IMG/VR virus record: IMGVR_UViG_3300035686_000004
Coordinates: 1-64,000 of that record
Length of the DNA stretch: 64,000 bases
Source: a virus
Strand: one strand, 5' to 3'
The notes under the pieces are model-generated. The model ran no database searches. It saw nothing but the letters and a program-made list of their open reading frames with translations, and was not told the origin of the DNA. The translations under genes and the position numbers were made by a program. Of the stretch, positions 1,520 through 57,587 are shown piece by piece (the first letter of the stretch is position 1; every line of letters begins with the position of its first letter).

Positions 1520-3592
1520 CTAGAAAGTAGAGCCGGGATCTAGTAAGGCGATCGCGCCTATGATTGCTAGTCGCTTTGCGGCTTGTTCATTTGGAAGTAT
1601 CAGGGTTTTGTCATGGTGATTATTTAGCTTGATGCTAAATCCTCCGCCTTCTTCAGCCAGTACTTGAGCTGCAACCCCAAAAACAGTGGCAGAAAACTTA
1701 CTGCGATCGTCCCCCTCGTGCCAAGCAATCTTATTGAGGACTGCTGGTAACTGGAAGGGGTTGAAGAGGGAGAAAGCCCGCCCTACCCAACCTAGCGAAT
1801 AAGCTACGTCATGGAAGGTCTGATAGTCATCCGAGTTAGCACTCCAAAACACAATAACTGATGGCTCTCTGTTTCCGTCTCCTTTTGCGCTGGGATTTTC
1901 GGCTAAAAGTAGCTCTCCCGGCTCAAATGACAGCCTTTTATTGGGCTTCAGAATGACAGGATTGTGATCCTTCAAAAGTTTCTGGTAAGCTTTCCCTGAC
2001 TGAACCGACACAGGAAGTATCAAAAACAACTTCTTAATATTTCCTGCGCATATTTGCCCATCAAGCAAGGCGATCGCTTCGCTTGATTTAGAATAAGGCG
2101 GATTGGCGAACACATTCCCGCGATGTTCTTGTGAAAAAGCATTATCTAAGATAGTATACCGATTCCTTGCTGGAATATAGCCCGGATCGGTAAGCATCGC
2201 AAATGAATCAAGATCGATTACACCCATGCAATCGAGCGCTAACGCGGCATACTCCTGTGGCGTTTTTCGGTTATCGGCAGGAATATCCTTTGCGTCTTTT
2301 GCTGCCTGAATTAACTGCGCTAATGTCGCAGCTGTATCGCCATCGGACACCGTAGTAGAAGCTAGTTTATCACTGATAATTTCCGAGGCGATCGCCTCTG
2401 AAGCGCGCTTGACAGATTCAGCTGGATTAGCTCGAACTCGTTCAAGCACCTTTGCCTGATAGGCTTCTTTGGGAATATCAATTACCTTGGGCGGTTCTAG
2501 CTTAACCAACTCTGCTGCTTTTGCAGGAACTTCATTAGCGTATGAGCGAATATCATTCTTAAGGCTTTCGTTCTCATATGCATCAGTCGCATCATGCACT
2601 CGCTTAACCTTAAAAGCCGTTTCGCGAGAAACTACCTTGCCGTCTTGACGCCCCAGTGCTTGACGCAAGCGATCAATCATCTCCGATGACGTAAGCTTCG
2701 CGTCAACTGGGATTGATGGACATGTGGACAAAGCAATTAAATTTTTGATTTCGGCGTCTAGTTGCTTTTTAGTTTTTGTCCTGACCTTATTATGTAAGAT
2801 CATGTGCTTGAATTCAGCCTCGGGTGAGGCAAAGTTGACTACTTCACACGGAATGAATTCAAATTTTGGCGGTTTTCCTTGCTCAATCAATTCTTGATTG
2901 ACACGTCGCGCTGCTTTGATGCGGCGATTACCGGCAAGTAGCTGCCCTTTTGAGTTAATTTCAACACGAAATACTTGACCGTCATTTTCACGCAAAACAT
3001 TAACCAAATCATCGACAGGCTCGTTCTCACCATAGACTAGGGAGTTGTAGGGATGCTCAATTAGTGCATCAATATCGACAAGCCCATCCGCTGTTGATAC
3101 TGTTTCGTGATAGGCAGCGATCGCATTTAAATGAGCCGCCTCAAGAGCATTAAGTCGCTTCGTATTGCCTACCACAGGAGGTAGCTCAACCTCATTGTAT
3201 GTCTGTTCAAAAATCAAATCATCTTCACGAGTGACTTTGGCGATCGCTTCACTCAAATTCCCTGTAATGATTACCTTATAATCGCCGATTGGCAACTCAA
3301 CGACCCGATCCTCATCCGTATTGCCAGACTTGCTCTCGCTCCTTGCTCTGTCTATTTCTTTTTGTTGCTCTGCCTCTGGTAGCACATCAAACGCCTCAAG
3401 TGCATTAGAAAGGTTGGTAACTATTTCTGAATCAGGCATTTCTTGCTCAGGCACGAGTGACTGAAGTCCTTCTACCGGAATCGCCATCTCTTCGTTAGAG
3501 GCAATGCTTTTGTCAGCTGCCTTGACTTTTGTAGATTGTTTTGCTTTTGCAGGCTTGTCATTAACTTGTTCTGACTTGGATTTTGCAGGCAT
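1520..3592 (-). CDS. ParB-like nuclease domain fused to phage Dam-type N6-adenine DNA methyltransferase
   Basis: 690 aa. The central LLAGNRRIKAARRV resembles the ParB GxxRxxA box. The C-terminal TPQEYAALALDCMGVIDLDSFA ... VFANPPYSKS ... LFLILPVS ... KRLSF follows the phage Dam (PF05869-like) pattern with an NPPY catalytic motif. Confidence 0.8.
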   Translation of the reverse strand: MPAKSKSEQVNDKPAKAKQSTKVKAADKSIASNEEMAIPVEGLQSLVPEQEMPDSEIVTNLSNALEAFDVLPEAEQQKEIDRARSESKSGNTDEDRVVELPIGDYKVIITGNLSEAIAKVTREDDLIFEQTYNEVELPPVVGNTKRLNALEAAHLNAIAAYHETVSTADGLVDIDALIEHPYNSLVYGENEPVDDLVNVLRENDGQVFRVEINSKGQLLAGNRRIKAARRVNQELIEQGKPPKFEFIPCEVVNFASPEAEFKHMILHNKVRTKTKKQLDAEIKNLIALSTCPSIPVDAKLTSSEMIDRLRQALGRQDGKVVSRETAFKVKRVHDATDAYENESLKNDIRSYANEVPAKAAELVKLEPPKVIDIPKEAYQAKVLERVRANPAESVKRASEAIASEIISDKLASTTVSDGDTAATLAQLIQAAKDAKDIPADNRKTPQEYAALALDCMGVIDLDSFAMLTDPGYIPARNRYTILDNAFSQEHRGNVFANPPYSKSSEAIALLDGQICAGNIKKLFLILPVSVQSGKAYQKLLKDHNPVILKPNKRLSFEPGELLLAENPSAKGDGNREPSVIVFWSANSDDYQTFHDVAYSLGWVGRAFSLFNPFQLPAVLNKIAWHEGDDRSKFSATVFGVAAQVLAEEGGGFSIKLNNHHDKTLILPNEQAAKRLAIIGAIALLDPGSTF

Positions 3593-26709: not shown

Positions 26710-27684
26710 GTGGCACAGCTAACTGGGATTACATTGTTTTCGGGTATCGGTGGGGTATCGTGTGGAATGAGAATGGCGGGTATAGAAGTAGCCGCCTCTG
26801 TTGAGTTTGATATTGAAAATCAAGCATATTCGGCAACATGCCAGGAGATTTCAAATGCAAATTTTCCTGACGCGGATTTCTATTTGAATCCCGTAGGGGA
26901 GGTTGCAGACTTGCTACCAGGTTGCGACATCTTGCAGGCATCGCCTGTGTGTGCAAGTTTTAGTGCTTTGTCGGCGTTTCGCAATAACGGAGTGATTCAA
27001 GAGACTTTAGCCGATACGCAGATGGCAACAGATACCGTCAAGGCGATCATCCGCTGTGACGCGCCGTACTTTTGCTTGGAGCAAGTAGTTGGTTATCAAA
27101 AAACTAGGAGCCTGGACATAATAGTCAAAGCTCTTAATCAAGGTAACTATACTATTTCAACAGCAATTCTTGACGCGGCTGATTATGGAGTTGCCCAAAA
27201 CAGAAAGCGCTTATTTTTGTTAGCGTCAAAGCAAGGGAAGTGGGAATTTCCTCTACCAGCAAAGCGTCAAGTGGGGTGGAAAGAAGCGATCGCGGGAATT
27301 GAGTTAATTCCTTCCGCTACGTTAACCAAAGAGCAGCGCGCCGCACTAGTGCGATCACTTGATTCTAGCTATGATTTAAGTAAAGGTGTACTAATTCAGC
27401 GCACTGGAATCAATATCTGCGTAAGGCGGCACAACGAACCATGCTGGACGCTCACTCGAAGTAGTTTCACGGACGGGAAGAATGCGGCAAGGAAAGAAAT
27501 CATAAACGTAGTTAACGATAGAGGGATATGGTCACTCCCTATCCGAGCGATCGCGCGTTTATGCTCGTTTCCTGATAGCTACCAGTTACCGGGTCGGCAC
27601 GTTGGACAAGGCTTAGGGTATTGTGTTCCTCCCAAGTTAGTAAAGCAATTGCTTTTACCTATTTCTAGCAAGGTTAGTGTATAA
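26710..27684 (+). CDS. DNA (cytosine-5)-methyltransferase
   Basis: 324 aa with a GTG start after AGGAG. Motifs: LFSGIGG (I), SPVCASFS (IV, catalytic Cys), LEQV (VI), QNRKRLFL (VIII), GYCVPP (X). Confidence 0.85.
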   Translation: MAQLTGITLFSGIGGVSCGMRMAGIEVAASVEFDIENQAYSATCQEISNANFPDADFYLNPVGEVADLLPGCDILQASPVCASFSALSAFRNNGVIQETLADTQMATDTVKAIIRCDAPYFCLEQVVGYQKTRSLDIIVKALNQGNYTISTAILDAADYGVAQNRKRLFLLASKQGKWEFPLPAKRQVGWKEAIAGIELIPSATLTKEQRAALVRSLDSSYDLSKGVLIQRTGINICVRRHNEPCWTLTRSSFTDGKNAARKEIINVVNDRGIWSLPIRAIARLCSFPDSYQLPGRHVGQGLGYCVPPKLVKQLLLPISSKVSV

Positions 27685-42323: not shown

Positions 42324-42710
42324 GTGCCATACAAGCTAATCGTAAACTATCACGGAATTGACAGGGAGGAGTTTATTCTCCCTGAATTTCCTAAAACTTT
42401 AACGATTGGACGATCAACAAAAGTTGAGGCAAATGACATTTCAATTAAATCCCCTAATGTTAGTAGACGTCTAGGGGCAATTAAAACTAGTATCATAAAT
42501 GGCAACTCTGTCCATTCAATGGCGCGATCGCCTGTCGCGCTAAACAAGTTTAGGAAAAAAATCGGGGTTGATGCTTACATAGAAATTGGTGATAATTTTG
42601 TCTTAAATGACGGGGATATTTTTTTAATATCTAATAGTAATGTATGGCTCCAATACATGATTTGCGAAAATGATAAAACCCAAATTTCAGAAAATGAAAC
42701 TCTCTTTTAG
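42324..42710 (+). CDS. FHA-domain-like protein
   Basis: 128 aa (GTG start). LTIGRSTKVEANDISIKSPNVSRRLGAI ... LNDGDIFLI matches the FHA pattern tiGR....di.l....vSr.Ha.i ... L.dGD.i.iG. Confidence 0.5.
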   Translation: MPYKLIVNYHGIDREEFILPEFPKTLTIGRSTKVEANDISIKSPNVSRRLGAIKTSIINGNSVHSMARSPVALNKFRKKIGVDAYIEIGDNFVLNDGDIFLISNSNVWLQYMICENDKTQISENETLF

Positions 42711-43176
42711 GGGTAAAGGCAATAAAGCATTAATCTTGCTGATTATTGCTGCCATTATTGCCGTTACCCTAGGGTTAGCCCCAGTAACGGCAGATAGCCA
42801 GAGTTTGATTTTGGTGATACTGGGCGCAATCGGAGGTGTACCTGCATTATTTGAAATAGGCGATCGCATCGTTAAAAACTTAGAGCGCTTTGATCAGCAA
42901 TTGCTACGCCTAGAAGAAACAGAAGCCCTCAAGCAAATGGTTGCCGATGCTACACGGCAATTAGAGGAGGAACGTGAGCGTGTTGAGATATTGAGGAAAG
43001 CGATCGCCCTAGAGGTAGAAACGCTTAGGGGGGTAACCTATAATGCTACTTCGGACGCCCAAGCCGCACGAAATGACGCTCAAGCTGCGAGGGAAATTGC
43101 ATTAAGAGCAGAGTCTAATTTAGTTCTTCAATTGGTAGAACGCCTTGTTAAGCTCGAAGATAAAGCCCAAGTCTAA
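42670..43176 (+). CDS. membrane-anchored coiled-coil protein
   Basis: 168 aa (alternative ATG at 42694). TM segment ALILLIIAAIIAVTLGLAPV, then coiled coil. The stop TAA is part of the palindrome at 43171. Confidence 0.55.
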   Translation: MIKPKFQKMKLSFRGKGNKALILLIIAAIIAVTLGLAPVTADSQSLILVILGAIGGVPALFEIGDRIVKNLERFDQQLLRLEETEALKQMVADATRQLEEERERVEILRKAIALEVETLRGVTYNATSDAQAARNDAQAAREIALRAESNLVLQLVERLVKLEDKAQV

Positions 43177-43184
43177 TATTAGAC
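43171..43184. repeat. PAL14 perfect
   Basis: Provides the TAA stop of 42670..43176. It lies between this gene and the convergent kinase gene. Confidence 0.95.
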
Positions 43185-43191
43185 TCGTTCA

Positions 43192-44562
43192 TTAGGGTTT
43201 TAGTTTTAAAGTAAAAACCGTATTAAATTCCATCTGTTGTATAAATCCGGGGCTAGCTACAGAAACACTGCCGCCATGAGCGATCGCGCAAGCCTTGACA
43301 ACTGATAAACCCAGTCCAACACCCTCAACCGCTCCAACATTATCAGCCCGTTGAAACGCCTCAAAAACAGTATTGCCTATATTTTCGGGAATTCCTATAC
43401 CTTTGTCACCTACCGAAACAGACCAAGCTTGAAGATCAACTAAAATATAAATCATTCCTCCTTTTGGGGAGTATTTAACTGCATTACTAATTAAGTTGCG
43501 AATAGCGCGATCACAAAAATCAGGATCAATTCTAATAATCTGCGGTTCTCCCAAAGCCCTAACAATCAGTTCATGTATTTCAGTAGATTGGCTATATTCA
43601 GATGCAATAGTGTTAACTAGCTCAGGTAAGTCTACTTCTTGGATGTCTAGTCGAATCTGATTGGTCTCTGACTGACAAACCAGGATTAAGTCATCAGCTA
43701 GATCTTTAATCCTGTTGGTGCCTTTTGGAATTTGTGCAACCCATGTTTTTAATCGATCAGGTCTAGTATTGCCATAGTGTTGGATCAACTCTGATGCTGT
43801 TAATATAGGCTGAAGACATAGGCGCAAGTCATGAGCGATCGCGCCTATTACTCGTGCTCGTTCCGCTCTTGCATTTTGCATTACCTTGATCTCGCAAGCA
43901 TCCGCATGATGCTTGATGAGTAACTGCTTATTTCTCCATGCGATCAATAGGATTGTGGAGGCGATCGCGCCAGATAACGTAGCTGATAATGCTAGACGCC
44001 TTGCCAAGAGCGAGTTTAAATAATGAATAGATTTGTATTGTTTTTGACGAATTAACACACGAATTTGGTTCGCCTCTTGTTCTACCTTGGCAATTAGCTG
44101 CCTGTCTTGTAACAGGAGTGAAGCAATGTTTTTGTCTTGCGTCAAAAATCTAATTTGTAGAGTAGCCTGAAATACCTTAATTTTTTCTTGTTTGATTTGT
44201 TGCAATTCATAAACATCCAACCTATCAACGTAGCGATTGTTAATTAATTCTTTAGTATAAACATCTACACTATTCAGGTTCTTATTAAAGGTGGTAATGT
44301 AGTAACTACGATCACTTAGATTCCCTAGCGCGCTTTTAATTAGATATTCTTTAGCGGTAATATCCGACTGAGTAAATGCAGTGACAATGCGTTCTAGATG
44401 TATCGTATCAACGTGCAATTTCTCAATAGTTTGTAATGTATTGTGAATATTTACTTGAGTAATTAAAAGCAATGGACTGGCTACGGCGGCAACAACAGCG
44501 CAAGCGATCGCTCCCATCAATAGCTTTTCTTTGAAGTAATCCCTTAGACGGAGAGTTTTCAC
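43192..44562 (-). CDS. sensor histidine kinase
   Basis: 456 aa with two TM segments flanking a roughly 150-aa helical sensor region. H-box IGAIAHDLRLCLQPI, N-box NLISNAVKYSPKGG, G-boxes GDKGIGIP and GVGLGLSVVK. Confidence 0.85.
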   Translation of the reverse strand: MKTLRLRDYFKEKLLMGAIACAVVAAVASPLLLITQVNIHNTLQTIEKLHVDTIHLERIVTAFTQSDITAKEYLIKSALGNLSDRSYYITTFNKNLNSVDVYTKELINNRYVDRLDVYELQQIKQEKIKVFQATLQIRFLTQDKNIASLLLQDRQLIAKVEQEANQIRVLIRQKQYKSIHYLNSLLARRLALSATLSGAIASTILLIAWRNKQLLIKHHADACEIKVMQNARAERARVIGAIAHDLRLCLQPILTASELIQHYGNTRPDRLKTWVAQIPKGTNRIKDLADDLILVCQSETNQIRLDIQEVDLPELVNTIASEYSQSTEIHELIVRALGEPQIIRIDPDFCDRAIRNLISNAVKYSPKGGMIYILVDLQAWSVSVGDKGIGIPENIGNTVFEAFQRADNVGAVEGVGLGLSVVKACAIAHGGSVSVASPGFIQQMEFNTVFTLKLKP

Positions 44563-44617
44563 TGTACGCTTAGTTACGATTGATTAATATTAATTATAGA
44601 CTAGGGACAATAGGACT

Positions 44618-44860
44618 ATGTTGCGTCAAATCGAACCGTCAACAGCGATTGAGCAAAACAATCATTACTATCGCAATGCTCTTACGCCTGCACTATCCTC
44701 AGTGGAATTACTGAAGCAGTACGGCGATCGCATGACGCCAGAACAAAAAGATAAGCATCTAATAAGAATTGAGCAATCTTTAGTTAGATTGTTGTCATTG
44801 GTTGAAGAGAGAAATGAAAGCGTTGAACAGGGAAACATACTGATGTTCCGTCGCAGTTAA
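44618..44860 (+). CDS. stand-alone DHp-like (HisKA-like) helical protein, paralogue of the adjacent kinase H-box region
   Basis: 80 aa. NHYYRNALTPALSSVELLKQYG aligns with the kinase AHDLRLCLQPILTASELIQHYG (His, Arg, Pro and ELxxxYG conserved). No ATPase domain. Confidence 0.55.
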   Translation: MLRQIEPSTAIEQNNHYYRNALTPALSSVELLKQYGDRMTPEQKDKHLIRIEQSLVRLLSLVEERNESVEQGNILMFRRS

Positions 44861-44872
44861 TGTTAGCAATCA

Positions 44873-45268
44873 GTGCCAATGCTACGAATTCTAGTCATTG
44901 AAGATCAGCAAGAATGCAGAGAAAACTTAATTGAAATCTTGGAACTAGAAGGACACAGCGCATTAGGAGTGAGCAACGGAAATGAGGCGATCGGTATCCT
45001 TGGTAATCAGCATTTTGATCTGATTTTTTGCGATATTGTTCTTTATGAAATATCCGGATGGGAAATATTAGCACATGTCCGTACACTGAGGCGATCACGA
45101 AAGGTTTATCTCCCTTTTGCTTATGTAACAGCACAAGCGGGAACGGTCAATCAACAACTAGCGATGCAATTAGGCGCAGACTATTTTATCACAAAACCTT
45201 ATCGGATCAAAGAAATACAAAAGGCGATCGGTCATTTGTTTATACTGAAAAATCTAATATTAGACTAA
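44873..45268 (+). CDS. single-domain response regulator (CheY-like receiver)
   Basis: ILVIEDQQE, DLIFCDIVL (phospho-acceptor Asp), YVTAQ and FITKPY match the receiver landmarks. The likely ATG is at 44879. The C-terminal LILD is encoded by a palindrome copy. Confidence 0.85.
   Translation: MPMLRILVIEDQQECRENLIEILELEGHSALGVSNGNEAIGILGNQHFDLIFCDIVLYEISGWEILAHVRTLRRSRKVYLPFAYVTAQAGTVNQQLAMQLGADYFITKPYRIKEIQKAIGHLFILKNLILD
45252..45265. repeat. PAL14 variant ATCTAATATTAGAC
   Basis: Encodes the last residues (LILD) of the response regulator. Confidence 0.8.
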
Positions 45269-46355: not shown

Positions 46356-49300
46356 CTATAGCCCATGACGTCTTCTTTCGTTGGGAGAATTCCTCATCCA
46401 GTTTGAGGTTATCTTAGCACCACCTCGCGCCCCTTCTTGCGCGGCGTATTGAATGCCCTGTTCAAATTGTTCACGGGTGACGTACTCGCGATCGCCTATC
46501 TTTTCGTACTGGATGCTGATACTGCGACTACTTTCTACAGGTTCACCACTGGAGTATTCACGCTGTTGGTAGGACGGCATAGCCCCGCCTGAATTTAGAG
46601 AATCAAGGAATGCCGTCCCCATGTTTGTTACGCCGTCACGAGACACAACAAACTCTCCGGGTCGTAGCATAGCAGGAACACTATCCTTGCCTTTATCAGT
46701 TCCAGGAACAACGCCACCTTCAGAAAAACCAAGGATACCTGTCAGTAATCCTAATGGATTGCCACCGCCGCCAATAACAGAGCCTACAATACTGCCTAGT
46801 AATCCTCCACCAGTGTCTTGACCCGTGTTTTTACCCTTGAATATGCTTTCAACTCCAATGTCAATCAACCGACCAATAATTTGGTCTTTCATCTGATTGA
46901 ATGCATCTTTGAGGGATTCAAAAACACCTTTACCCTCAATCAGAAAACCCTTAAAGAAGTTCTTCGTTGCATCTCTGCCAGCTAACTCTACTTCGCGAGA
47001 TAAGTCAGCAAATTGTTGGCGAATTTGATCCAGTTTGAGTTGGTTAATCTGGATCAAATAATCACGCATCCGCTCAAATTCATCATTTGGAATCTGCCCC
47101 TTCAATTGGTTCAATTGCTCCATTTGATTCTTGAACGTCATATTTTGCTGAGCGATCGCCACATTGCGCTTAATGAATGTAGCTGAGAAGTCCGCGCCAT
47201 TCCCTGCTAATACATCCGCTCTCAAGTTAAGCATCTCTGCATTGCGGTTGAAGCGTGCTTGCTGTTGGGCGATCGCGGCTTGCTGTCGTTGCAAAGATAG
47301 TATTTGTTCTAGACTTTGGCGTTGCCGTTCATAATCCTCGGCTGAAAGATTCGTCAATGCACGCGCTTTTTCTAGTTCCCTGATTGCGGAGTCATATTGC
47401 ATACTTGCATTGAACTCCTGCGCTTGACGGGATAGAGAATCAACTTCGATACCCACTGAACTTAACAGCCCTGTCCTAGCCTGTAGGGTTGCTAGGTCGG
47501 CTTGCTGGTTCTGTTGCTTCCGTCGTAATTCAAAGTCAAGCCTATCTTGAGTAAACCGGGTCTGTGTTTGCTGTAATTCAATCCTGGCATTCTCTAGTCG
47601 TTGATCCGCCGCTTGATTGATAGTCGCAAGGATTGCATTCAAATCTTCTTGAGAGCGGTTTTGATTGGTCAACTGAAAGCGCTGTTGCTCTAATATTGCC
47701 TGTTGACGCTCCTGCTCGACTTGTAGCACTGTTTGCTGGTAGCGCAACAACGCAGGATCACCTTGACTTAAATCAAATGGGCGGAACTGCTGGAATAATT
47801 CAGCCGCCTGCTGTTGTGCTTGAGTTAGCTGTCCTGATGCCTGATTGCGGCGCTGCAAAAATGCAAAGTCAGCCTCTCTAAACTGAAGTTGCCGCTCCTC
47901 TTGACCAAACGCCCGCGCGGCTTCTGTATTTGCAGTCAAAGCTTTCTCTTGCTGGTTGAGAAGGGCGATCGCATCATTGTATTCTTGGGGCTTAATCCGT
48001 TCTAGCCTCAACTCTTCTTGCAATTGCCGACGTTTTTGATCGAGAGGAAGTAGGCGTTGCATTAGCTCAATCTCTGCCTGTAATGCGATCGGGTCACCCT
48101 GGGAAAAGTCGCGGGGGTTGCGCTGTTGTGCAAGTTGGGCACGTCGTAGTTGCTCTTGCTTGAGAGCGATCGCCTCTTGGGTAATCATGTCACGAGCCGC
48201 CAACCGTCGCAGCTTTTCCTCTCTCGCAAACCGCTCTTTCTCAAATGCTTGGCGGCGCTTTTCTTGGTCATCAATCTGACCAATGATGGTATTCACTTCT
48301 TTAAGTGTCTTGGAACCAACCGCGATCGCTCTACGGGTTGTCTCAATATCCTTGGCGACATCTTGACCGGGCTGTGCTTGATAAGTTGGGGAAGTTAATT
48401 CTTTCTCGGTAGCACGCGCCTGTTCCACCCCTGCTGTAGTCTGACGCTGAAATTCTAGTAGGCGTCTCCTTAAGTCTGAATAAGTATCACTGGTTGCTGT
48501 TAAATTTTGTTGGAATTCTCGCAAGGGGGTAGGGTCACCAATTACACTCCCCAAGTTTCTAAATTCTCGTTGAATACCAAGGGACTGCTCTACAAGCTGA
48601 TTAAGGGATTGGCGCGTTTGTTCTGTCCGGTTGCGCTGCTCTTGCGCCCCCCTTGTTTGCAAATCTTGAAGCGCTTGTTGCTCTTGCTGGATGGCAAGCT
48701 GATCTTGGCTTTCACGGTTACGGATAACTTGACTTTGACCACTGACAACACGCTGCCTTAAGCCCATATCAACAACAGGTACTGGTTTGGTAGATACCAC
48801 TGATACTGGGACTGGAGTTGGCTTAGCCACAGGTGCTTTAGGGGGTTGGACAATTTGTGTGGCTTGCCTTGCTTTTGCTGCCTCTTCCGCCACTACTTCA
48901 GGATTGACCATGCTTATACCTAGAACGGCACTACGCTTTACCCCTGTCCCTCCTTGGCGATACAGATTAAGTCGATTTTGGAAGTAGGGAATGGCTGACC
49001 GTCTACGCCCCTGCGGTGTACCTTGTCCATAAGGATTTCCCTCAAAGCTTGCCCAAATCTGCCCTAAGCGCCGCCACATACCATTTATATCTCCTTTCTC
49101 CGCCCTACCAAGGATTCCAGCTTCGTCCAATAGCGCGAGTGCCGCAATGTCTTGGCTAGTAGGACTGAAGTCTGGCACTCCAGTAATGTCTCTTACTCCA
49201 GGCCCTGGTCTTTGCTTTCTCCGTCCATACCACGTGTAATCCATGAATTGGTATTTCCCCGCCGCACTTGACGGAATCCAGCCGGGTCGCCTTACTACTC

Positions 49301-52300
49301 TATCGGGATGTCTCGATAAATTCGAGAGTTTACTGCCTCCGTAAAGCATATCGTATGTTGCACCCTCAGCCCGCCCAATAGTATCTAGTAATGCTCGAAT
49401 CTCCGGATCATTCAGCAACTGAGCATAGCGCTGTCCTTTTGCTGTCAGTCCCCTAGGAATAGCTCGATTAGTGGGTGCAGTGCCGTTACTTCTGAGTGAG
49501 TTTGCGATCGCAGCCCCAATTGCATTAGCACCCCCGCTGATAGTCCCCTGATCTTCCGTTCGACTGCTAGCACGCTTTGTCGTAGTTGATACCGCTGTTG
49601 GTCGCATTTGCCCTTTGAGTTGTTGCTCATAGGGCGCTAACCCTCCAATTACCCTAAGCCTAGTTCCCTCTTCGCGAATTAATCCTAGTTTTTCGAGATA
49701 TTTAACGGGATCGGTTGTCCCAGGGAATCCAAGACCCCCAACCCCATTAGTATGCTTAGTCCGAATTTCGTAATGTATAACTCCTGTATATGATTCTCCT
49801 CTTCCTACTGCTTGACCGGGTTGTACGACATCACCTTTTTTAACCAATAAGCGTGACGCTTCCGCTATGCGTTCAACAACATTTAACGCTTTGTTGTAAA
49901 TATCTACATAATGCCCATAACCTTTCCAGCTTCCGTCATACCCTATGTTCGTGACAACACCACCCAAGAAACTTTGTGCATCCTGTCTTCCTGTGATATC
50001 AAAATCTTGCCCAGCGTGACGCCTACGCCCACCACTTCTAGGCGCACCGTAGTCCTGACCCGGTATCAAGTTTGTACGGTAATTAATAGTGACGCGCCCA
50101 TCGCCTCTGACTATATTTCCACTACCCTTTTTTCCGCCTGAGTCTAATATTAGACTGGTACTACTTGTCGCTGATCGTTGCTTTGGCTTTTGTGGCGTTG
50201 CTGCACTCCCCCGATCAGCGCTTAGTAACCCCTCTTGCACATATTGCTCAAAGTTGGCAGAGTCACCTTTGATTGACGCGATCGCTTCTTTACTTTTTTG
50301 CTTAATCGCATCAATTGATTTACCAAATGAACCGACTAGCGTTTCACCTAAACTTGTAACTGAACTGCCAAGTTTATTAAATTCATTTCCTAGACTAGCT
50401 ACTTGCTTTTTGGCTGCGTCTACTAAATTGGGATACTTGGATAGTTTCAAGCCAATTTCAGTCACAATACCAAGGATGGGATTAAATGCCTTGAGCAAGT
50501 TAACCCCTACAATAGTTGCAAACTCTTTGGTACTGGCTTTGATTTTCCCCGTTAAATCATTGATGCCAAATTGCTTTTCAATGATTTGGATATGTGCCGC
50601 GATCGCCTGATTAAGGGCTTCATTCATTCGGGCTAATTCTGCACGAATTGATTGAATGCCCGGTATTGATTGAAGTTGCTTTTCGATAATTTGCAAATAT
50701 GACGCAATTGTTTGACCTAAATCCTGATTCATTCGTGATAACTCTGCACGAATAGATTGAATCCCAGGGATAGATTCAAACTGCTTTTTTATTATTTCAA
50801 TCTGTGCGGCAATGCTTTCTCTTAGTACTTCGTTGATACGCTTAAACTCAGTATTTATGTTCCTGATAGCTGGAATCGATTGGTCAACATAGGTTACAAA
50901 AGATTGCCAACTAGCCTGTAGTGAGGCGATCGCGTCATTCCACGCAGTACGAGGATTAGTGAAAATATTGAGTAGGAAATTTTTGCTCTGTTCAACAACA
51001 TTCAAGAATGCTTGCCATCCAGTCTTTAACGCATCTTCAAATTGCTTACTCGTGCCAATCAAGCCAGCAAATAACGCAATTAAACCGGGAATTCCACCAG
51101 CAATTGATGCACTAAATGAGCCAAAACTTAATTGCCCGTTTTCAAAAGGCTTGGAAATAGCCGCAGATAAACCAGGAAAGCGCTGCTTAACGAACTCTAC
51201 AAACTCATTCCATTTTGCTTTTAGAAAGTCAATGGCTTGATTCCAGGGATTTGGATCGGGGTGCGGCAACTGTGTCTGTTGCAGAGATGTATTTACATTA
51301 GCGATCGCGCCGTTAAGATTTTTGGTTGTCACTCCTGCGCTTTCCAGCCCCGCCTTGAGTTGCTTGACCGTTGCATCGGCATTCACGGCATCAATATCAA
51401 GTCTAATGGGAATCCTTGAGATAGGCGTTGTAGATATTGAATCAGGGACTAAATTACTAGGCAATCCATCTGGCAATTGACGGGTTAGTTCAGTGCCTTG
51501 GCGCAACAAATCAGATGCTTGAATCTGGTTTTGATAGAGTTGTTGTCGCTTTTGTATTTCCGCCTGTTGTGCCGACTGGATGCTGTCCAGTCCTGATATG
51601 AGTGAATCAACAAATCCTGAGAAGAAATTAGACTGAAATCCTTGCAACTTAGATATCAAGCGATTCTTTTCAGCCGCGATCGCTAACTGTGATTCACTTG
51701 CCTCAATAGTCAATTGCAGTTCTTGAGTCTGCCTGCTAATCCCCCGTAAATACTCATCTACGGACTTGCCCAGTTCGTATAACTGCTGTGCTGCATCTGC
51801 CTGTGATTGACTTAGTTGTACCTCTAATTGACCTAGCTGTCCTTCTATTTCCCTCATCTTGGTCAACCGTTCATACAGCAGCTTTTCTTCAGCCCCCGTC
51901 GCTAAACCCGATAGTCTATTTAATTCTTCTGTCCCTATCGTTTCAGGGTTAATGCCTCGCTGAAACATTAGTTGCACATTGTCGGGCGTATTTACATACT
52001 GACTGAGTTTACCAAGGGCTTGAGTTGCGTTGTTAACCTGTGCTTCCAGTGATCGCTGTTGCAATAATTGCTGACCATACTGTGCTTGACCAGGAGTTAA
52101 TCCATTGCGCTGTGCTATTGATAACCCTGTTTGATAACGCGCTGTATTGCCTGTGATCGCTGTATTAGCATCAGCATAAGCCGTTACAGTTTTTGTTAAT
52201 TGGTCACGAATTAACTTAACTAAACTAATTTGCCCTGATGTAAAGTTTTCGAGTTCTTTTTGTGCAGCTTCCAGCGCGGGAATTGATTGTCTAATATTAG

Positions 52301-55300
52301 ACTTTAAGACGTCTACCTGTTTCCGAGAAATCTGATTTTTTGCCCATAATTCATCTATTGATTCAATCTCTGCATTGGCGGCCTCTAGCAAAGAATCCAC
52401 CAGTTCCTTTTGATTACGGACTCTAACGTCAATTTGCTCTTTTTCTTTGCTGTAAATGTCTCGTTGATAGCTTGGCAAAAACGGATCAGCGGTTAACGCA
52501 CTAAGTTGTCGCGATCGCGCTGCATCGTCAGGTTTGACCTGAGAATTATTGAGGGTAACATTAACTCGATTATTGAATTCTTGAATATCTTTTAAGTTAG
52601 AGCGCGATCGAATTATTGATTGTAGGTTATTGTAATTACCCAAAATTGATGCGATCGGATTAAATGTATCAAGTGCTTTTTGCTGGGCATTGCGGTTCAG
52701 GAATTTATCTAAATCATTGAAGGTCTTGGGTATACCTTTGCCAACCCCGTTGGCGGCATCCTCTAAACGCTTGAATTGCTTGATGTTTTTCTCGATTGCT
52801 GAATCTAAATTTTGAGAGCCTTGGAATGATTGCCAAGTATCTGATACTACCTTGAGGGCTACTGCCAAGGCAGCTGTTTGTAGGGAGAACTTAGCGATCG
52901 CGGCAGCTGCAACATTAAATCCACCAGCAAGCGCAGGCAATGCAACTTGGGCAATCTTAAGAATCAATCCAAGGACAACTGGAAGCTGCTGTAACGCTAA
53001 TGCGCCAAGAATTAAAGCGATTTTGTCAGCGTTGGCAATGACTGCTTCTAGTGCGACATTCAATCCTTTCAGCCCAGTATTAACTAGAGGCATTACCGCA
53101 CTCCCTAGCATCCGCTCTAACTGAATTCTTGTATTGCTTAACCTATTCTCTAGTGCCTGCGTTGAGTTTGTAGCTTCATCTACTCCAGACGCAAACTCAA
53201 CGCGCAGTTGACGCGCAAACTTCAAGACAGACTCAGCACCAGAATACTGACCCGTTACCAGGTTTTTCCTAAACGTTTCTGGTGATTCACCATATGCTCT
53301 AGCAAAAATATTCGCCGCGCCCGGAAATGCCTCACCGATTTGTTGATTGACTTCCTCACTAGATAATACAGGTTTACCAGCTGCCTGAACTACACCATAA
53401 ACAAATCGACGTCGCCTCTCTGGCGTTAACTGCCTGACCAGTGCCGCCTCATTAAGTGCCGTAAAAATTTCACGGGTATTGCCTTGTAGCTTTGTCCCTT
53501 GCAATGCTGAGGATAAGTCATTAAAGCTTTCTGTCGCATCTTGTAATGGTGCGTTGAGTCGTTCTACTTCGCTTCTGATATATGCAATGTTTTTTGCGCC
53601 CTCACTTTCAGATCCGGCACTATACCTAATTGAGCGCTCTAAGCTATCGAAAGCTTTTGCTGTTTGGTAAGCTTGATTTGCAATGTTGCCTAGAACTGGA
53701 ATGAGTTGCAATGCAAGTAATGCAACGCCTACTCCTCGTATTCCACTAGACAGCGATCGCAGCAAGGGATTAGCTTTTATTAATTCATTGATCGCTTCTC
53801 TAACTTGCATTACCTTATCAATTGCCCCTTGACTAGGCTTAGTAATCAATTCTCTTGCCCAGTCAAGCCCCTGTTGTCCCTTCTGAATGCCTTGGTTAAA
53901 TCCCTCTACGACAAACTCGCCAATGCGTTGAAACACTCGCGATGGACTTTGTATATCTAGTGTGTCTTTCGCCTGGTTAATTGCTGATTTAGCTAATTCT
54001 TCAGCAGCGGCTTCAACTTGCTGAATTGATTGACTCATTCCCTCGCTTAAGCCTTGTCCAATATTAGACCCAATTCCTTGAGATTGGATGAGGGATTCAG
54101 CAGTGGATGAGGCAACCGTTATCCTAATCCTGGCTGACTTAGCGATCGCTTTCAGCTCTTGCGAAGCATTGCCGCCTAGCGACTTCATCAAGTCATCAAT
54201 TGCTTTCTTTGCTTCCTTAGCCCCTGTCAACACTTCATTGGCTAATTTCTGAGACTCGATTGGATCAAGTGTTGAAAGTTTTCTGGCTGACTTGATTTTT
54301 TCAGTAAATTGTAATCCTAAACTCTTGACACTAGCGCCAGGATCTATTGCTTGAGTTAACGGTTTATTAATTTGCTTGATAGATTCTTCTGTACGTTTTT
54401 GAATTTTAACTACTTGTGATTTTAGGTTGGCTAATTGATTGCCTAGCTCAGAACTGAGACGTTCATTGACTGGGAGAGAGGCGATTGCCTGTTCTATTTC
54501 TTGAGATAATCCAGGTAGTAAGTCTTTGACTACATCGGCGTAGGCAGCTGAAATGTTAGGTACTCCCCTGGATAAATCACTAGCCGTTAAAGAGCTTTGT
54601 GCTAACGCCTCAGTCCGTTGCTTTATTTGATCAATCAGGGATGCATCAGGGCGCGATATTTCTTGTATTAACGGTTGACCAATTGCCCCAATAACTTGAT
54701 TGATTAATATATCTGATTTCTTAATTACTTCCTTGACGTTGCGCTGCAAAGCTTCATCTGTCGCGTTTTGGGCTGTTGATTTTAAGGAAGTTTGATTAAC
54801 AGGTAAAATAGCCGTTAATTCAGTTTGTGGGGACTGAATATTAGCAGGTAAATTAACAGGAGCAAAAGTCTTTTCAGTTGTCTTAATTAGCTTGTCTAAC
54901 TGCTCTAATGGCTCTCCGTTAATGAATGAATTAATAGATTGCTTGAGCGTCTCTAGATAATCTAAATAGCTATCGACGTCTTGTTGAGTGACATTAGTTA
55001 ACTGTGCAGCGTCAACCTTGATTTGCTTGATTAACTCATCAATATCTCTACGGGAGTCTATTAATTCACGAGTCGATGCTGACTGATTTTGCAATAAAGA
55101 AATTGCTCCCCTGGGAACTTCAGGGTATCTGTACAAATTGGTTGTGTTTTGCTTTCTAAGTGCCTCAGCCTCAGCGATCGCTCGTGCCTCTTGCGCTTGC
55201 TTTTGCGCTCTCGCCGCACGCTCTCGATCTATGTTTGCGTTGAGAGTAGGCGTCAGTTGCTGTTGCAATGCCTGAACAGGCTCATAATATTGAGCGCCTA

Positions 55301-57587
55301 AGTCTAATGCAGACTTAATTTTTTCAGATGATACTTCACCCTGAGCAATAGTGTCTTTGATTGCAGCTTCGATACTGCTTAAAAACTGAAGATAATTCTC
55401 CAAATCTTCTTTCATCACCCCCCGAAGTTCACCTGTATTTTGTCTAAAATCCTCACTCAGCTTCTCAACATTACGCAAACTCCGCTTTAGGTCACTCGTG
55501 CTAATTTCTTCCCCCGTTAGTGACTGAATTGCTTTAATGGGGATGTCTGCTTTTAGACCGCGATCGCGAATGAACTTGTAGGTTTCGGGGTCTTTAAATT
55601 CCTTGGCTATTTCATCCGGCAATGCTCCCGTTAAACGCTGTTGCATTTCCTTCTGAATCCTAGGGTTAGACAAATACATCGGCAATGCATGAGACTTACC
55701 CGCGCCCGGTATAAGCGTCATGGGCGTTAACGCAGGATTGAAAATGCCTTGTAATAACGTCTTACGCGCCTCTGCTTCAACTCCTTTTTCTACCAATAGC
55801 TTGATATCAGCAGCATCTAACTTGTTAGCTTCAAACATCTGGGTATAAACATAATCCTTCTTACCCATGAGTGAGGTGTAATTGGCTTGCTGATTCCCTA
55901 CGTTGCCAGCATAAACAAGCCCTGTCATGGGCGTGCCTAAGCCCACTGCATTAACTGTTACTCCAGCCTTAGCGGTAATCTCGGCAACCCCCGCCGCAAC
56001 CTCCCCGCCAGCTGAGTGCCCAACTACATTAATTTTCTTCCCAGGGTATGCTTTTTGATAAGCGATCGCATAAGCTGCGGCGGTCAAGGCATCCGGGTTG
56101 TAACCCTTGACAGCACCTGTATATGCCATCTGTTCTAGCCCAAGCAATGAACCCGACTTATCTTTCTCGTAAATTGCCTGAGCAAACGTGGTTTTTCCAG
56201 TCAAATGCTTGCTTAAATTCCCGATGTCAATATTGCGATTAGTGAGGAATTTGTTAAGGTTCCCCATCAACCCTTTATCAGCCTTCTTGAGTTCGTCTAA
56301 AAAGTCATCTAGGCCCGCCAATCCTGAGTCCGTGTAAGGATTGGCGACGGGCACAACATGCGTTTTTTTGCCCATCAATGCCTGAAATTCAGGGGCAATT
56401 ACCGCCGATCCAGCTCCTTGAACATTATTTTTGCCCGCGATCGCGATCGTAATTGTCGGCGCATCTCCTACTTTACTTGCTGGTGCAACCTCAATATTCT
56501 GTGCAAGCTTTTCAGCTTGCATTGCCAGATCTTGGGCTTTGACACTTCGCCTTATTTTGAATGGATATGCCCCAACTTTTAAGCCCGCACCTACATACGG
56601 TCTAATGGCTTCATTTTGAGCCAACTCACTAGCCGCTTTTGCGACATTCTGAGCCTCTCGCTTTGCCGCTTCCTTGGCTTTTCTTACATCTTTAAAGACA
56701 AAAATATTTTCTAGTAATTCTACTAATAACGCCTCTGCTTTTTTGGCGGCTTTTTCGATTGGTTCGGGGTCTGTTGCTTTATCAAATGCCTTGGCAAAGG
56801 CGATCGCGTCATTCTTAATCTGCTCAGTTGTTAACCCAAGTGTTCCTAGGCTTGCCTGAGTAATTCGCTGTACCTTGGTGGACGAATAATCCTCTATCTT
56901 TTCCCCAACTTTAATAAACGAAGTATTTAGCTTTCGCTCTAAATTTTTAGTAATTCCAATGCCTATTTTTTCCCCTAACGGAAACCCTATAGAAGTAAAA
57001 ACGCCAGACACAACTTCCTTTATGGGAGCTGTTATTGTGCTAGCTACTCCACTCAGTAATCCGCGATCGCTCGTTTTTTTACTATTAGCTTTCTCGATCG
57101 AATTTTTTAATACTACTGCTGAATCTTTAAACGCTTCTTTAATCCCAGATTCAAGCGCTACATTTAATTTTTGTGTTTCACTTTTATCTACAGTAGCCTT
57201 AACTTTAACTGATGCCTCTAACTTGCTAGATAACTCATTTATCTGCGATCGCAGCGCAGCTTCATCTATTTTTTGTACAACAGCTTTTACCTTAATTGGA
57301 TTAGATGCCATCCAATTATTGATATCAGTAACTGTTGCTTTTAACTTAATTAACTCAGCGATATCGGTATATACTTTTATGGGATTTCTTTTAAAATGTG
57401 CGTTAACTCGTGCAACATGAACCACTTTTTCATCAATGTGCTCATTTAGCTTATATAAAGCCGTATGATCAACAGTCGGCACAACATGGATGATCGGGAG
57501 TTTTACCCTCTTTATCTGCTCTAATCCCGCATAAAATCCAGAGAGATCTAAGCCTGTCCCAATTCCAATAGACGCAATGTAATCCAT
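46356..57587 (-). CDS. tape measure protein, 3743 aa, with alpha/beta-hydrolase-like, peptidase M23 and lambda-type lysozyme (GH104-like) domains
   Basis: A giant ORF immediately downstream of the chaperone-like genes. Long Q/L/A-rich helical stretches. NVVGHSAGGEV (GxSxG) at nt about 56010..56030. RRRHAGQDFD ... GVIHYEIR (M23) at about 49740..50070. TIGRAEGATYDMLYGG ... SSAAGKYQFMDYTW (lambda R-like) at about 49010..49430. Gly-rich C-terminus. Confidence 0.9.
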   Translation of the reverse strand: MDYIASIGIGTGLDLSGFYAGLEQIKRVKLPIIHVVPTVDHTALYKLNEHIDEKVVHVARVNAHFKRNPIKVYTDIAELIKLKATVTDINNWMASNPIKVKAVVQKIDEAALRSQINELSSKLEASVKVKATVDKSETQKLNVALESGIKEAFKDSAVVLKNSIEKANSKKTSDRGLLSGVASTITAPIKEVVSGVFTSIGFPLGEKIGIGITKNLERKLNTSFIKVGEKIEDYSSTKVQRITQASLGTLGLTTEQIKNDAIAFAKAFDKATDPEPIEKAAKKAEALLVELLENIFVFKDVRKAKEAAKREAQNVAKAASELAQNEAIRPYVGAGLKVGAYPFKIRRSVKAQDLAMQAEKLAQNIEVAPASKVGDAPTITIAIAGKNNVQGAGSAVIAPEFQALMGKKTHVVPVANPYTDSGLAGLDDFLDELKKADKGLMGNLNKFLTNRNIDIGNLSKHLTGKTTFAQAIYEKDKSGSLLGLEQMAYTGAVKGYNPDALTAAAYAIAYQKAYPGKKINVVGHSAGGEVAAGVAEITAKAGVTVNAVGLGTPMTGLVYAGNVGNQQANYTSLMGKKDYVYTQMFEANKLDAADIKLLVEKGVEAEARKTLLQGIFNPALTPMTLIPGAGKSHALPMYLSNPRIQKEMQQRLTGALPDEIAKEFKDPETYKFIRDRGLKADIPIKAIQSLTGEEISTSDLKRSLRNVEKLSEDFRQNTGELRGVMKEDLENYLQFLSSIEAAIKDTIAQGEVSSEKIKSALDLGAQYYEPVQALQQQLTPTLNANIDRERAARAQKQAQEARAIAEAEALRKQNTTNLYRYPEVPRGAISLLQNQSASTRELIDSRRDIDELIKQIKVDAAQLTNVTQQDVDSYLDYLETLKQSINSFINGEPLEQLDKLIKTTEKTFAPVNLPANIQSPQTELTAILPVNQTSLKSTAQNATDEALQRNVKEVIKKSDILINQVIGAIGQPLIQEISRPDASLIDQIKQRTEALAQSSLTASDLSRGVPNISAAYADVVKDLLPGLSQEIEQAIASLPVNERLSSELGNQLANLKSQVVKIQKRTEESIKQINKPLTQAIDPGASVKSLGLQFTEKIKSARKLSTLDPIESQKLANEVLTGAKEAKKAIDDLMKSLGGNASQELKAIAKSARIRITVASSTAESLIQSQGIGSNIGQGLSEGMSQSIQQVEAAAEELAKSAINQAKDTLDIQSPSRVFQRIGEFVVEGFNQGIQKGQQGLDWARELITKPSQGAIDKVMQVREAINELIKANPLLRSLSSGIRGVGVALLALQLIPVLGNIANQAYQTAKAFDSLERSIRYSAGSESEGAKNIAYIRSEVERLNAPLQDATESFNDLSSALQGTKLQGNTREIFTALNEAALVRQLTPERRRRFVYGVVQAAGKPVLSSEEVNQQIGEAFPGAANIFARAYGESPETFRKNLVTGQYSGAESVLKFARQLRVEFASGVDEATNSTQALENRLSNTRIQLERMLGSAVMPLVNTGLKGLNVALEAVIANADKIALILGALALQQLPVVLGLILKIAQVALPALAGGFNVAAAAIAKFSLQTAALAVALKVVSDTWQSFQGSQNLDSAIEKNIKQFKRLEDAANGVGKGIPKTFNDLDKFLNRNAQQKALDTFNPIASILGNYNNLQSIIRSRSNLKDIQEFNNRVNVTLNNSQVKPDDAARSRQLSALTADPFLPSYQRDIYSKEKEQIDVRVRNQKELVDSLLEAANAEIESIDELWAKNQISRKQVDVLKSNIRQSIPALEAAQKELENFTSGQISLVKLIRDQLTKTVTAYADANTAITGNTARYQTGLSIAQRNGLTPGQAQYGQQLLQQRSLEAQVNNATQALGKLSQYVNTPDNVQLMFQRGINPETIGTEELNRLSGLATGAEEKLLYERLTKMREIEGQLGQLEVQLSQSQADAAQQLYELGKSVDEYLRGISRQTQELQLTIEASESQLAIAAEKNRLISKLQGFQSNFFSGFVDSLISGLDSIQSAQQAEIQKRQQLYQNQIQASDLLRQGTELTRQLPDGLPSNLVPDSISTTPISRIPIRLDIDAVNADATVKQLKAGLESAGVTTKNLNGAIANVNTSLQQTQLPHPDPNPWNQAIDFLKAKWNEFVEFVKQRFPGLSAAISKPFENGQLSFGSFSASIAGGIPGLIALFAGLIGTSKQFEDALKTGWQAFLNVVEQSKNFLLNIFTNPRTAWNDAIASLQASWQSFVTYVDQSIPAIRNINTEFKRINEVLRESIAAQIEIIKKQFESIPGIQSIRAELSRMNQDLGQTIASYLQIIEKQLQSIPGIQSIRAELARMNEALNQAIAAHIQIIEKQFGINDLTGKIKASTKEFATIVGVNLLKAFNPILGIVTEIGLKLSKYPNLVDAAKKQVASLGNEFNKLGSSVTSLGETLVGSFGKSIDAIKQKSKEAIASIKGDSANFEQYVQEGLLSADRGSAATPQKPKQRSATSSTSLILDSGGKKGSGNIVRGDGRVTINYRTNLIPGQDYGAPRSGGRRRHAGQDFDITGRQDAQSFLGGVVTNIGYDGSWKGYGHYVDIYNKALNVVERIAEASRLLVKKGDVVQPGQAVGRGESYTGVIHYEIRTKHTNGVGGLGFPGTTDPVKYLEKLGLIREEGTRLRVIGGLAPYEQQLKGQMRPTAVSTTTKRASSRTEDQGTISGGANAIGAAIANSLRSNGTAPTNRAIPRGLTAKGQRYAQLLNDPEIRALLDTIGRAEGATYDMLYGGSKLSNLSRHPDRVVRRPGWIPSSAAGKYQFMDYTWYGRRKQRPGPGVRDITGVPDFSPTSQDIAALALLDEAGILGRAEKGDINGMWRRLGQIWASFEGNPYGQGTPQGRRRSAIPYFQNRLNLYRQGGTGVKRSAVLGISMVNPEVVAEEAAKARQATQIVQPPKAPVAKPTPVPVSVVSTKPVPVVDMGLRQRVVSGQSQVIRNRESQDQLAIQQEQQALQDLQTRGAQEQRNRTEQTRQSLNQLVEQSLGIQREFRNLGSVIGDPTPLREFQQNLTATSDTYSDLRRRLLEFQRQTTAGVEQARATEKELTSPTYQAQPGQDVAKDIETTRRAIAVGSKTLKEVNTIIGQIDDQEKRRQAFEKERFAREEKLRRLAARDMITQEAIALKQEQLRRAQLAQQRNPRDFSQGDPIALQAEIELMQRLLPLDQKRRQLQEELRLERIKPQEYNDAIALLNQQEKALTANTEAARAFGQEERQLQFREADFAFLQRRNQASGQLTQAQQQAAELFQQFRPFDLSQGDPALLRYQQTVLQVEQERQQAILEQQRFQLTNQNRSQEDLNAILATINQAADQRLENARIELQQTQTRFTQDRLDFELRRKQQNQQADLATLQARTGLLSSVGIEVDSLSRQAQEFNASMQYDSAIRELEKARALTNLSAEDYERQRQSLEQILSLQRQQAAIAQQQARFNRNAEMLNLRADVLAGNGADFSATFIKRNVAIAQQNMTFKNQMEQLNQLKGQIPNDEFERMRDYLIQINQLKLDQIRQQFADLSREVELAGRDATKNFFKGFLIEGKGVFESLKDAFNQMKDQIIGRLIDIGVESIFKGKNTGQDTGGGLLGSIVGSVIGGGGNPLGLLTGILGFSEGGVVPGTDKGKDSVPAMLRPGEFVVSRDGVTNMGTAFLDSLNSGGAMPSYQQREYSSGEPVESSRSISIQYEKIGDREYVTREQFEQGIQYAAQEGARGGAKITSNWMRNSPNERRRHGL
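50142..50155. repeat. PAL14 perfect, inside the tape measure gene
   Basis: Read as SLILD, just upstream of the M23 domain. Confidence 0.95.
50600..50910. repeat. three tandem 105-nt (35-aa) repeats inside the tape measure gene
   Basis: Protein units IPAIRNINTEFKRINEVLRESIAAQIEIIKKQFES / IPGIQSIRAELSRMNQDLGQTIASYLQIIEKQLQS / IPGIQSIRAELARMNEALNQAIAAHIQIIEKQFG. The two best DNA units start at 50622 and 50727. Confidence 0.7.
52289..52302. repeat. PAL14 perfect, inside the tape measure gene
   Basis: Read as KSNIRQ. Confidence 0.95.
54056..54069. repeat. PAL14 variant GTCCAATATTAGAC, inside the tape measure gene
   Basis: Read as GSNIGQ. Confidence 0.75.

Follow-up and report, generated by a model that had tools for sequence, protein, structure and literature searches.

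We analysed a 64,000-nucleotide stretch of viral DNA (positions 1 to 64,000 of IMG/VR record IMGVR_UViG_3300035686_000004), referred to here as the window, and identified a cassette of three two-component signalling genes at positions 43192-45268. The cassette encodes a sensor histidine kinase, an 80-amino-acid protein that resembles an isolated dimerization and histidine phosphotransfer (DHp) domain, here called the mini-DHp, and a receiver-only response regulator. The kinase is transcribed divergently from the other two genes. A first-pass annotation, made from the DNA letters by a model, had described the same three open reading frames (ORFs), orientations and complete kinase, DHp and receiver set, and these stand. 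Its descriptions of a full transmembrane kinase with H, N and G boxes, of a regulator reduced to a receiver, and of a small protein that retains the His and lacks an ATPase domain also agree with the evidence given below. The cassette contains the following features:

43192-44562, minus strand: transmembrane HisKA-type sensor histidine kinase, 456 amino acids (from Pfam, alignment and AlphaFold2)
44563-44617, no strand: divergent intergenic region of 55 bp between the kinase and the mini-DHp/receiver operon, holding the palindrome TTAATATTAA
44618-44860, plus strand: stand-alone DHp (HisKA-like) mini-protein, 80 amino acids, a helical hairpin without an ATPase domain
44879-45268, plus strand: receiver-only response regulator, 129 amino acids (the ATG at 44879 is the best start; an upstream GTG at 44873 is possible)

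The kinase contains a HATPase_c domain (Pfam accession PF02518, E=1.2e-19, 71 bits) and a HisKA match (Pfam accession PF00512) of 18 bits, under the 26.9-bit gathering cut-off. His244, N356/N360, D386-x-G388-x-G390 and G414-x-G416-x-G418 are invariant in a 25-kinase alignment and across the phage clades described below, and the F box residues F400/F403 are invariant or nearly so. The H-box reads H-D-L-R-L-C-L-Q-P. The kinase DHp is divergent, with Pro at H+8 and not at H+5 (counting from the phospho-acceptor His). The protein has two hydrophobic segments, centred near residues 25 and 199. Its predicted layout comprises a first transmembrane segment (~16-35), a four-helix extracytoplasmic domain, a second transmembrane segment (~190-208), the DHp and a catalytic and ATP-binding (CA) domain. 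In the AlphaFold2 model, the DHp hairpin is formed by helices 201-263 and 268-299, the CA domain has pLDDT values above 90, the sensor region is modelled as helices throughout at low confidence, and no HAMP domain is present. The kinase has no direct match to CHASE3 (Pfam accession PF05227) at E<=1. A full-length alignment (28% identity, E=1e-55) relates it to the kinase of another contig, L016, that has a precomputed CHASE3 match; by this homology, the sensor domain is probably CHASE3-like. No cellular homologue of the N-terminal half was found among 5.8 billion proteins, and the best cellular match to the kinase covers the catalytic core only (36% identity).

The regulator matches Response_reg (Pfam accession PF00072, E=2.9e-20, 72.9 bits versus a 30.2-bit cut-off) and has no output domain. 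The canonical residues E8-D9, D52, T84 (Ser in contig L017) and K106 are conserved in nine homologues. The gene starts 18 nucleotides past the mini-DHp stop codon, and the 64-kb window contains no second receiver domain. Comparison of the regions between the divergent genes in three clades showed no conserved operator, and neither a promoter scan (9 sites versus 11.5 expected) nor a terminator scan did better than shuffled sequences.

Several comparisons identify the mini-DHp as a bona fide DHp domain of the HisKA type. Over 78 residues, it matches the DHp of a hybrid kinase from Geminocystis (P0009; BLASTP E=6e-10, 31% identity), with His16 aligned to the phospho-acceptor His, and the similarity extends through a loop (YGD..TPE.K) into the strand that normally leads to the CA domain. 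All eight mini-DHp family members compared with Pfam have HisKA as their best-scoring family, in each case below threshold (best 7e-4). The family profile identified 207 proteins at E<=1e-3 among 1.84 billion, with kinase-like matches down to E=1e-7. Beyond five small-protein clusters, these matches are mostly multi-domain proteins aligned at the expected DHp position, and those that we sampled are PAS, LOV or hybrid sensor kinases. The list also includes a few short proteins (80-107 amino acids) and two repetitive multi-stretch matches.

The mini-DHp family itself has 13 members of 80-122 amino acids. A word-index search with the mini-DHp returned only the query, and alignment-seeded and exhaustive profile searches were required to recover its relatives. 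Family members share an invariant core, N15-H16-x-x-R19-N20, and a conserved C-terminal tail, G-x-I-x-x-F-R/K-R/K. AlphaFold2 predicts a monomeric helical hairpin (helices 7-38 and 41-70, pLDDT 85). The protein stops ~10 residues past helix 2 and has no C-terminal alpha/beta domain of the Spo0B/ChpT type. About half of its top 50 PDB fold matches are kinase DHps, none reaching E<=1e-3. Foldseek gave no match at E<=1e-3 in either PDB or BFVD because the hairpin fold is too simple, and a profile search of PDB sequences with the mini-DHp alignment produced chance coiled-coil matches only. None of eight family members matched Hpt (Pfam accession PF01627) at E<=1, the predicted fold having two helices only, and no sequence match to Spo0B or ChpT was found. 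The mini-DHp does not belong to the Spo0B/ChpT or HPt families.

The relationship between the mini-DHp and the adjacent kinase is less close than first described. The reported alignment to the kinase H-box is real (9/22 identical residues, ungapped) and weak (BLASTP E=0.001; hhalign E=0.007, probability 5%), and identity to the phage kinase DHp is ~21%. Against the family profile, DHps of cellular PAS kinases reach 25-41 bits and the phage's own kinase reaches 8-9 bits. Given these far higher scores for cellular DHps, the claim that the mini-DHp is a paralogue of the adjacent kinase is not established, and we consider it doubtful.

H-box residues of the kinase and the mini-DHp

We tabulated H-box positions in register for 156 related cellular DHps, the 13 mini-DHp family members and the phage kinases of three clades:

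H+1: E/D in 93% of cellular DHps; variable (Q, E, H, Y, T, F, M) in the mini-DHp family, acidic in 3/13; D in phage kinases
H+4: T/N/S in 154/156 (99%) cellular DHps; N in 13/13 mini-DHp members; L, L or H in phage kinases, never T/N
H+5: P in 98% of cellular DHps; A or V in the mini-DHp family; not P in phage kinases
H+8: P in 0% of cellular DHps; P in 12/13 mini-DHp members; P in phage kinases

The His and the Arg at H+3 are present in all 13 mini-DHp members. The kinase motif is H-D-L-R-L in the window's own clade (clade A) and in clade B, and H-D-I-K-H in L016. The bifunctional motif H-E/D-x-x-T/N is incomplete in the kinase, which keeps the acidic residue and lacks the T/N.

Mutagenesis has shown that HisKA kinases require the acidic residue at H+1 for kinase but not phosphatase activity, and the T/N at H+4 for phosphatase but not kinase activity (Willett & Kirby 2012, PMC3510030). 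The His aids the HisKA phosphatase reaction, and an HK853 construct without the CA domain keeps phosphatase activity (PMC7005713). Read against this published work, the complementary H+1 and H+4 patterns make the kinase look kinase-positive and phosphatase-negative (K+P-) and the mini-DHp look kinase-negative and phosphatase-positive (K-P+).

The kinase and the mini-DHp have in common a Pro at H+8 without a Pro at H+5, a combination present in 0 of 156 cellular relatives. This shared proline shift points either to common descent or to adaptation of both proteins to one receiver, and it is consistent with the kinase and the mini-DHp docking on one receiver.

Distribution and selection

The window looks like most of a tailed-phage genome with a cyanobacterial host. 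It contains 144 copies of the HIP1 octamer GCGATCGC in 64 kb (2.25 per kb; ~1 expected), a high density for a phage genome. We identified the gene triad, or the mini-DHp/receiver pair, in at least four clades of uncultured phage-like contigs, and contigs with the triad carry tail, DNA-replication and thymidylate-synthase genes. An independent IMG/VR contig of 67,608 bp has identical gene order and junctions, with amino acid identities of 95-98% for the kinase and mini-DHp and 88% for the receiver.

A second clade (clade B, ~40-49% identity) comprises several JGI contigs and a 107,653-bp uncultivated viral genome (UViG_3300018719_000003), with the same divergent arrangement. Its neighbouring genes encode ThyX, dCTP deaminase, a methylase and the same three large structural proteins. 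In the clade B contigs L001/L004 (11431-12922), the kinase is followed directly by ThyX (Thy1) and dCTP deaminase, which are not found at that spot in the window. The module thus retains its internal gene order beside changing neighbours.

A third clade is represented by L016, which encodes a CHASE3 kinase, mini-DHp and receiver. Directly after the receiver come a bona fide FHA gene and a coiled-coil gene, and a second regulator is encoded three genes from the triad:

L016 9802-10413, minus strand: second response regulator, 203 amino acids

This regulator has an ~80-residue helical C-terminal extension that, by eye, resembles a DHp without its His, and it could serve as the terminal relay acceptor in that clade. 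In a low-GC clade (L017 and L014), the mini-DHp/receiver pair is flanked by genes for DNA polymerase A and a helicase, and no kinase gene lies next to it. HIP1 occurs at ~1-2 per kb in clades B and C and is absent from L014 and L017, implying that the hosts differ.

In all 13 contigs, the receiver gene comes immediately after the mini-DHp gene, at distances between a 16-nucleotide overlap and +30 nucleotides. The kinase is not beside this pair in two contigs, L014 and L017. Within-clade dN/dS values are 0.05-0.09 for the kinase (0.09 versus L006), 0.03-0.10 for the mini-DHp and 0.07-0.16 for the receiver. These values show strong purifying selection on each of the three genes.

Outside these contigs, we identified no mini-DHp relative in 185,579 species genomes, in a metagenome-contig pattern scan or in a viral-contig scan with P0131. 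In 50,697 phage records, the mini-DHp had no tblastn match, the cassette DNA had no match, and the kinase had C-terminal matches only (<=54% coverage), mostly in unannotated or contaminated records. In the literature that we searched on phage-encoded two-component systems and DHp-only proteins, we found neither a natural DHp-only family nor an equivalent triad. The kinase and receiver belong to the known HisKA/HATPase_c and Response_reg superfamilies, with the caveat of the sub-threshold HisKA score for the kinase.

These observations bear on whether the cassette belongs to the phage. An origin from host DNA, from a chimeric assembly or as a remnant in decay could draw on its GC content (39.3% for 43192-45268, ~2 standard deviations below the window mean; 2.1-kb stretches have a mean of 43.8%, a standard deviation of 2.0 and a minimum of 38.8%) and on the lack of annotated relatives for the 80-amino-acid protein. 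It is effectively refuted by the identical gene order and junctions in the independent contig, by the retention of the triad across clades that share only ~40% amino acid identity, by the dN/dS values of 0.03-0.16, by a HIP1 density equal to that of the rest of the phage and by the absence of the mini-DHp from every cellular genome searched. The first-pass conclusion that the cassette is phage-borne and not flanking host DNA is thus well founded, and the chimeric assembly or host island that it named as its own refutation is effectively ruled out. The low GC is consistent with an accessory ('moron'-like) origin despite long residence in the phage.

Some related contigs have been rearranged. 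TnpB/IS605-type genes (OrfB_IS605 and Cas12f1-like_TNB) are inserted in L001 (2939-4147), L004 (1-855 and 3510-5123) and L016 (14693-16252), and several genes found whole in L001 appear degraded and split in L002.

A possible division of kinase and phosphatase functions

We propose that the cassette encodes a split system, in which a kinase-only sensor is paired with a DHp-only phosphatase or phospho-acceptor for the receiver. We assign this reading a probability of roughly 40%. The domain identities, conservation, purifying selection, gene linkage and residue patterns are observed; we infer each activity, the dimer, the docking and the output in the following scheme. The kinase would sense an extracytoplasmic cue via its helical CHASE3-like domain, autophosphorylate His244 and then phosphorylate Asp52 of the receiver, which it would dephosphorylate poorly. 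The mini-DHp, presumably expressed from one transcript with the receiver and probably forming a four-helix bundle as a homodimer, would dock on the same receiver, and its His16 and Asn20 would remove or accept the phosphoryl group. It would thereby set the level and lifetime of the phosphorylated receiver which, without an output domain, would act by contact with a host or phage protein. In relatives without the kinase, the mini-DHp/receiver pair would function as a phosphate sink on a host kinase. Linkage to the receiver in 13 of 13 contigs, together with a kinase that is not obligatory, favours an action of the mini-DHp directed at the receiver.

Partial precedents exist for such a division. 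In the DivJ/PleC/DivK system of Caulobacter, two HisKA-type proteins likewise have opposing activities on one single-domain receiver. The phosphatase proposed here differs in being a bare 80-amino-acid DHp without a sensor or CA domain and in being phage-borne. The mini-DHp would function most like PleC opposite DivJ or like the isolated DHp constructs of EnvZ (domain A) and HK853, which consist of the hairpin alone with the His and a Thr/Asn at H+4. EnvZ domain A is active as an isolated DHp construct. These are laboratory fragments, whereas the mini-DHp is a natural conserved family with a variable H+1, a Pro moved from H+5 to H+8 and a conserved C-terminal tail.

Several points weigh against the split system. 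The Asn at H+4 does not discriminate between the proposed activities, since the phosphotransferase Spo0B has H30-D-W-M-N34. The shared Pro at H+8 could come from common descent and not from a shared partner, and by inspection the kinase and mini-DHp are no more similar to each other at other specificity positions than they are to cellular DHps. Because CA domains with bound nucleotide enhance the phosphatase activity of HisKA proteins (PMC7005713), a DHp on its own might be weak in this role. Finally, the second, longer regulator near the L016 triad is a better fit to a relay.

A relay of the Spo0F/Spo0B type would run from the kinase to the receiver, to His16 of a dimeric mini-DHp and on to a terminal regulator of the host, which may be supplied by the phage in some relatives. 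This relay is the main alternative, and we regard it as somewhat doubtful. It would account for the invariance of His16 (13/13), for a receiver-only regulator translationally linked to the mini-DHp, for the 203-amino-acid regulator encoded three genes away in L016 and for the persistence of the mini-DHp/receiver pair without an adjacent kinase in L017 and L014. Spo0B likewise has H-D-x-x-N on a DHp-like helix, and both Spo0B (Bacillus) and ChpT (Caulobacter) share with the mini-DHp a DHp-like hairpin, a conserved His, a predicted lack of kinase activity and a receiver-only partner. However, Spo0B and ChpT are proteins of 190-225 amino acids with a C-terminal CA-like alpha/beta domain that the mini-DHp does not have, and neither they nor HPt proteins show sequence similarity to it. 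With no second receiver domain, and hence no terminal regulator, in the window, the acceptor would have to be a host protein. The relay also leaves the loss of Thr/Asn at H+4 from the kinases of three clades unexplained.

Two further roles are less likely. As a non-catalytic adaptor, the mini-DHp would bind the receiver without phosphoryl chemistry, sequester or scaffold it, and alter its availability or localization. The tight operon coupling with the receiver fits this role, as does the conserved basic/aromatic C-terminal tail (G72, F77, R/K), which has no role in known DHp chemistry. We nevertheless consider an adaptor unlikely, as the invariant residues are exactly those of the catalytic H-box, N-H-x-x-R-N, while neighbouring positions vary. 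The mini-DHp might instead heterodimerize with the DHp of a phage or host kinase and block autophosphorylation, which the first-pass annotation had raised as kinase inhibition. RetS and GacS of Pseudomonas offer a comparison, as one HisKA protein exerts a DHp-mediated effect on another pathway (PMC5992135). RetS is a large hybrid kinase-like protein, whereas linkage and residue conservation here point to the receiver as the partner. The lack of an ATPase in this DHp hairpin would fit such an inhibitor, and the closer similarity of the mini-DHp to cellular (partly cyanobacterial) PAS/hybrid kinase DHps than to the phage kinase could suit targeting of a host kinase. On the other hand, identity to the phage kinase DHp is low, the gene is linked to the receiver in all 13 contigs while the kinase is not adjacent in L014 and L017, and an inhibitor would need no invariant His16, Arg19 and Asn20. 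Linkage to the receiver and not to the kinase leaves heterodimeric inhibition the least favoured of these modes of action, and we think it very improbable.

Two-component signalling is generally regarded as a property of cells, and a single HisKA protein normally combines the kinase and phosphatase activities. Prophages can carry kinase and regulator pairs, as in gp75/gp76 of the Mycobacterium prophage prophiGD05-1. The system described here shares with canonical HisKA/HATPase_c and regulator pairs the H, N, G1, F and G2 boxes of the kinase and the D-D-T-K residues of the receiver. It differs from them in having the mini-DHp as a third component, a regulator without a DNA-binding output, and a kinase with no Thr/Asn at H+4 and a sub-threshold HisKA match. 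We tentatively suggest, at somewhat less than even odds, that the 'NHxxRN' proteins of 80-105 amino acids are an undescribed phage-restricted family of natural DHp-only proteins that forms, with the co-encoded receiver, a portable module for draining or rerouting phosphoryl groups. With a phage CHASE3-type kinase this module would be an autonomous viral sensory circuit, and without one it would plug into host kinases. In both cases, the infecting virus could sense an environmental cue or shut down a two-component pathway of the host.

A conserved viral system with a separate DHp-only protein would be a natural example of separable kinase and phosphatase activities or of a minimal histidine phosphotransferase. 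Some cyanobacterial viruses would then carry their own extracellular sensor, and so may adjust infection to their surroundings or disturb signalling in the host. At 80 amino acids, the mini-DHp would also be a very small tool for resetting or rerouting response-regulator phosphorylation.

Genomic context and palindromes

The cassette lies where a plus-strand fibre operon (ending at 43176) converges with a minus-strand tape-measure operon (ending at 46356), in agreement with its first-pass placement between these gene sets. Such sites of operon convergence are typical for accessory genes. Structural genes in the window encode a J-like tail fibre, virion structural proteins and a tape-measure-like protein of 3743 amino acids. 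One structural protein has 41% identity to Cylindrospermopsis phage proteins and 27% identity to Synechococcus phage S-CBS4. Other window proteins include an ERF recombinase, a ParB/Dam methylase fusion, a PAPS-reductase-like protein, an M15 peptidase, a Bro-N protein, a helicase and a C5 methylase. No integrase family was identified among the scanned window ORFs of at least 300 amino acids, and the suggestion that the cassette is coupled to lysis or lysogeny found no support. PADLOC defence-system models gave chance-level matches only (E=0.004-0.008), and an NCBIfam scan returned no specific family.

The following features lie outside the cassette or, in one case, overlap its end:

1520-3592: ParB/Dam-type methylase
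26710-27684: C5 methylase
42324-42710, plus strand: ORF of 128 amino acids beside the kinase 3' end, with a faint FHA-like signature (Pfam E=0.048)
42670-43176, plus strand: ORF of 168 amino acids with two hydrophobic segments and a coiled coil, overlapping the preceding ORF by 41 nucleotides
43172-43183, no strand: palindrome copy (G)TCTAATATTAGA(C) on the stop codon of the convergent upstream ORF, 9 nucleotides past the kinase stop
45253-45264, no strand: palindrome copy (G)TCTAATATTAGA(C) that encodes the last residues of the receiver, N-L-I-L-D, in clade A only
46356-57587, minus strand: tape-measure-like single ORF of 3743 amino acids, with a Peptidase_M23 domain at residues 2523-2612

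We considered the ORFs of 128 and 168 amino acids as counterparts of the FHA and coiled-coil genes of L016 and dropped this idea, as the similarity is at chance level.

The 14-mer palindrome GTCTAATATTAGAC is present in 34 copies in the window versus 0.29 expected (allowing at most one mismatch in the 12-nucleotide core TCTAATATTAGA). Of these copies, 27 are intergenic, at gene ends or over stop codons, and three are within the tape-measure gene; sites include 1477, 19196, 28178, 31704, 42304, 46337, 57610 and 57638. Among the fetched loci, the palindrome is found only in the closest relative (L006/L009). The two copies that had been proposed to delimit the cassette are both present, and the second does encode the end of the receiver. 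As two of 34 mostly intergenic copies, they do not mark cassette boundaries. The palindrome may be a phage-specific regulatory, terminator or protein-binding site.

If the 3743-amino-acid ORF is the tape measure, an unusually long tail is implied. The L017 relative encodes a TMP_3 and M23 protein of >2099 amino acids. The ParB/Dam-type or C5 methylase of the window might target GATC or CGATCG inside HIP1.

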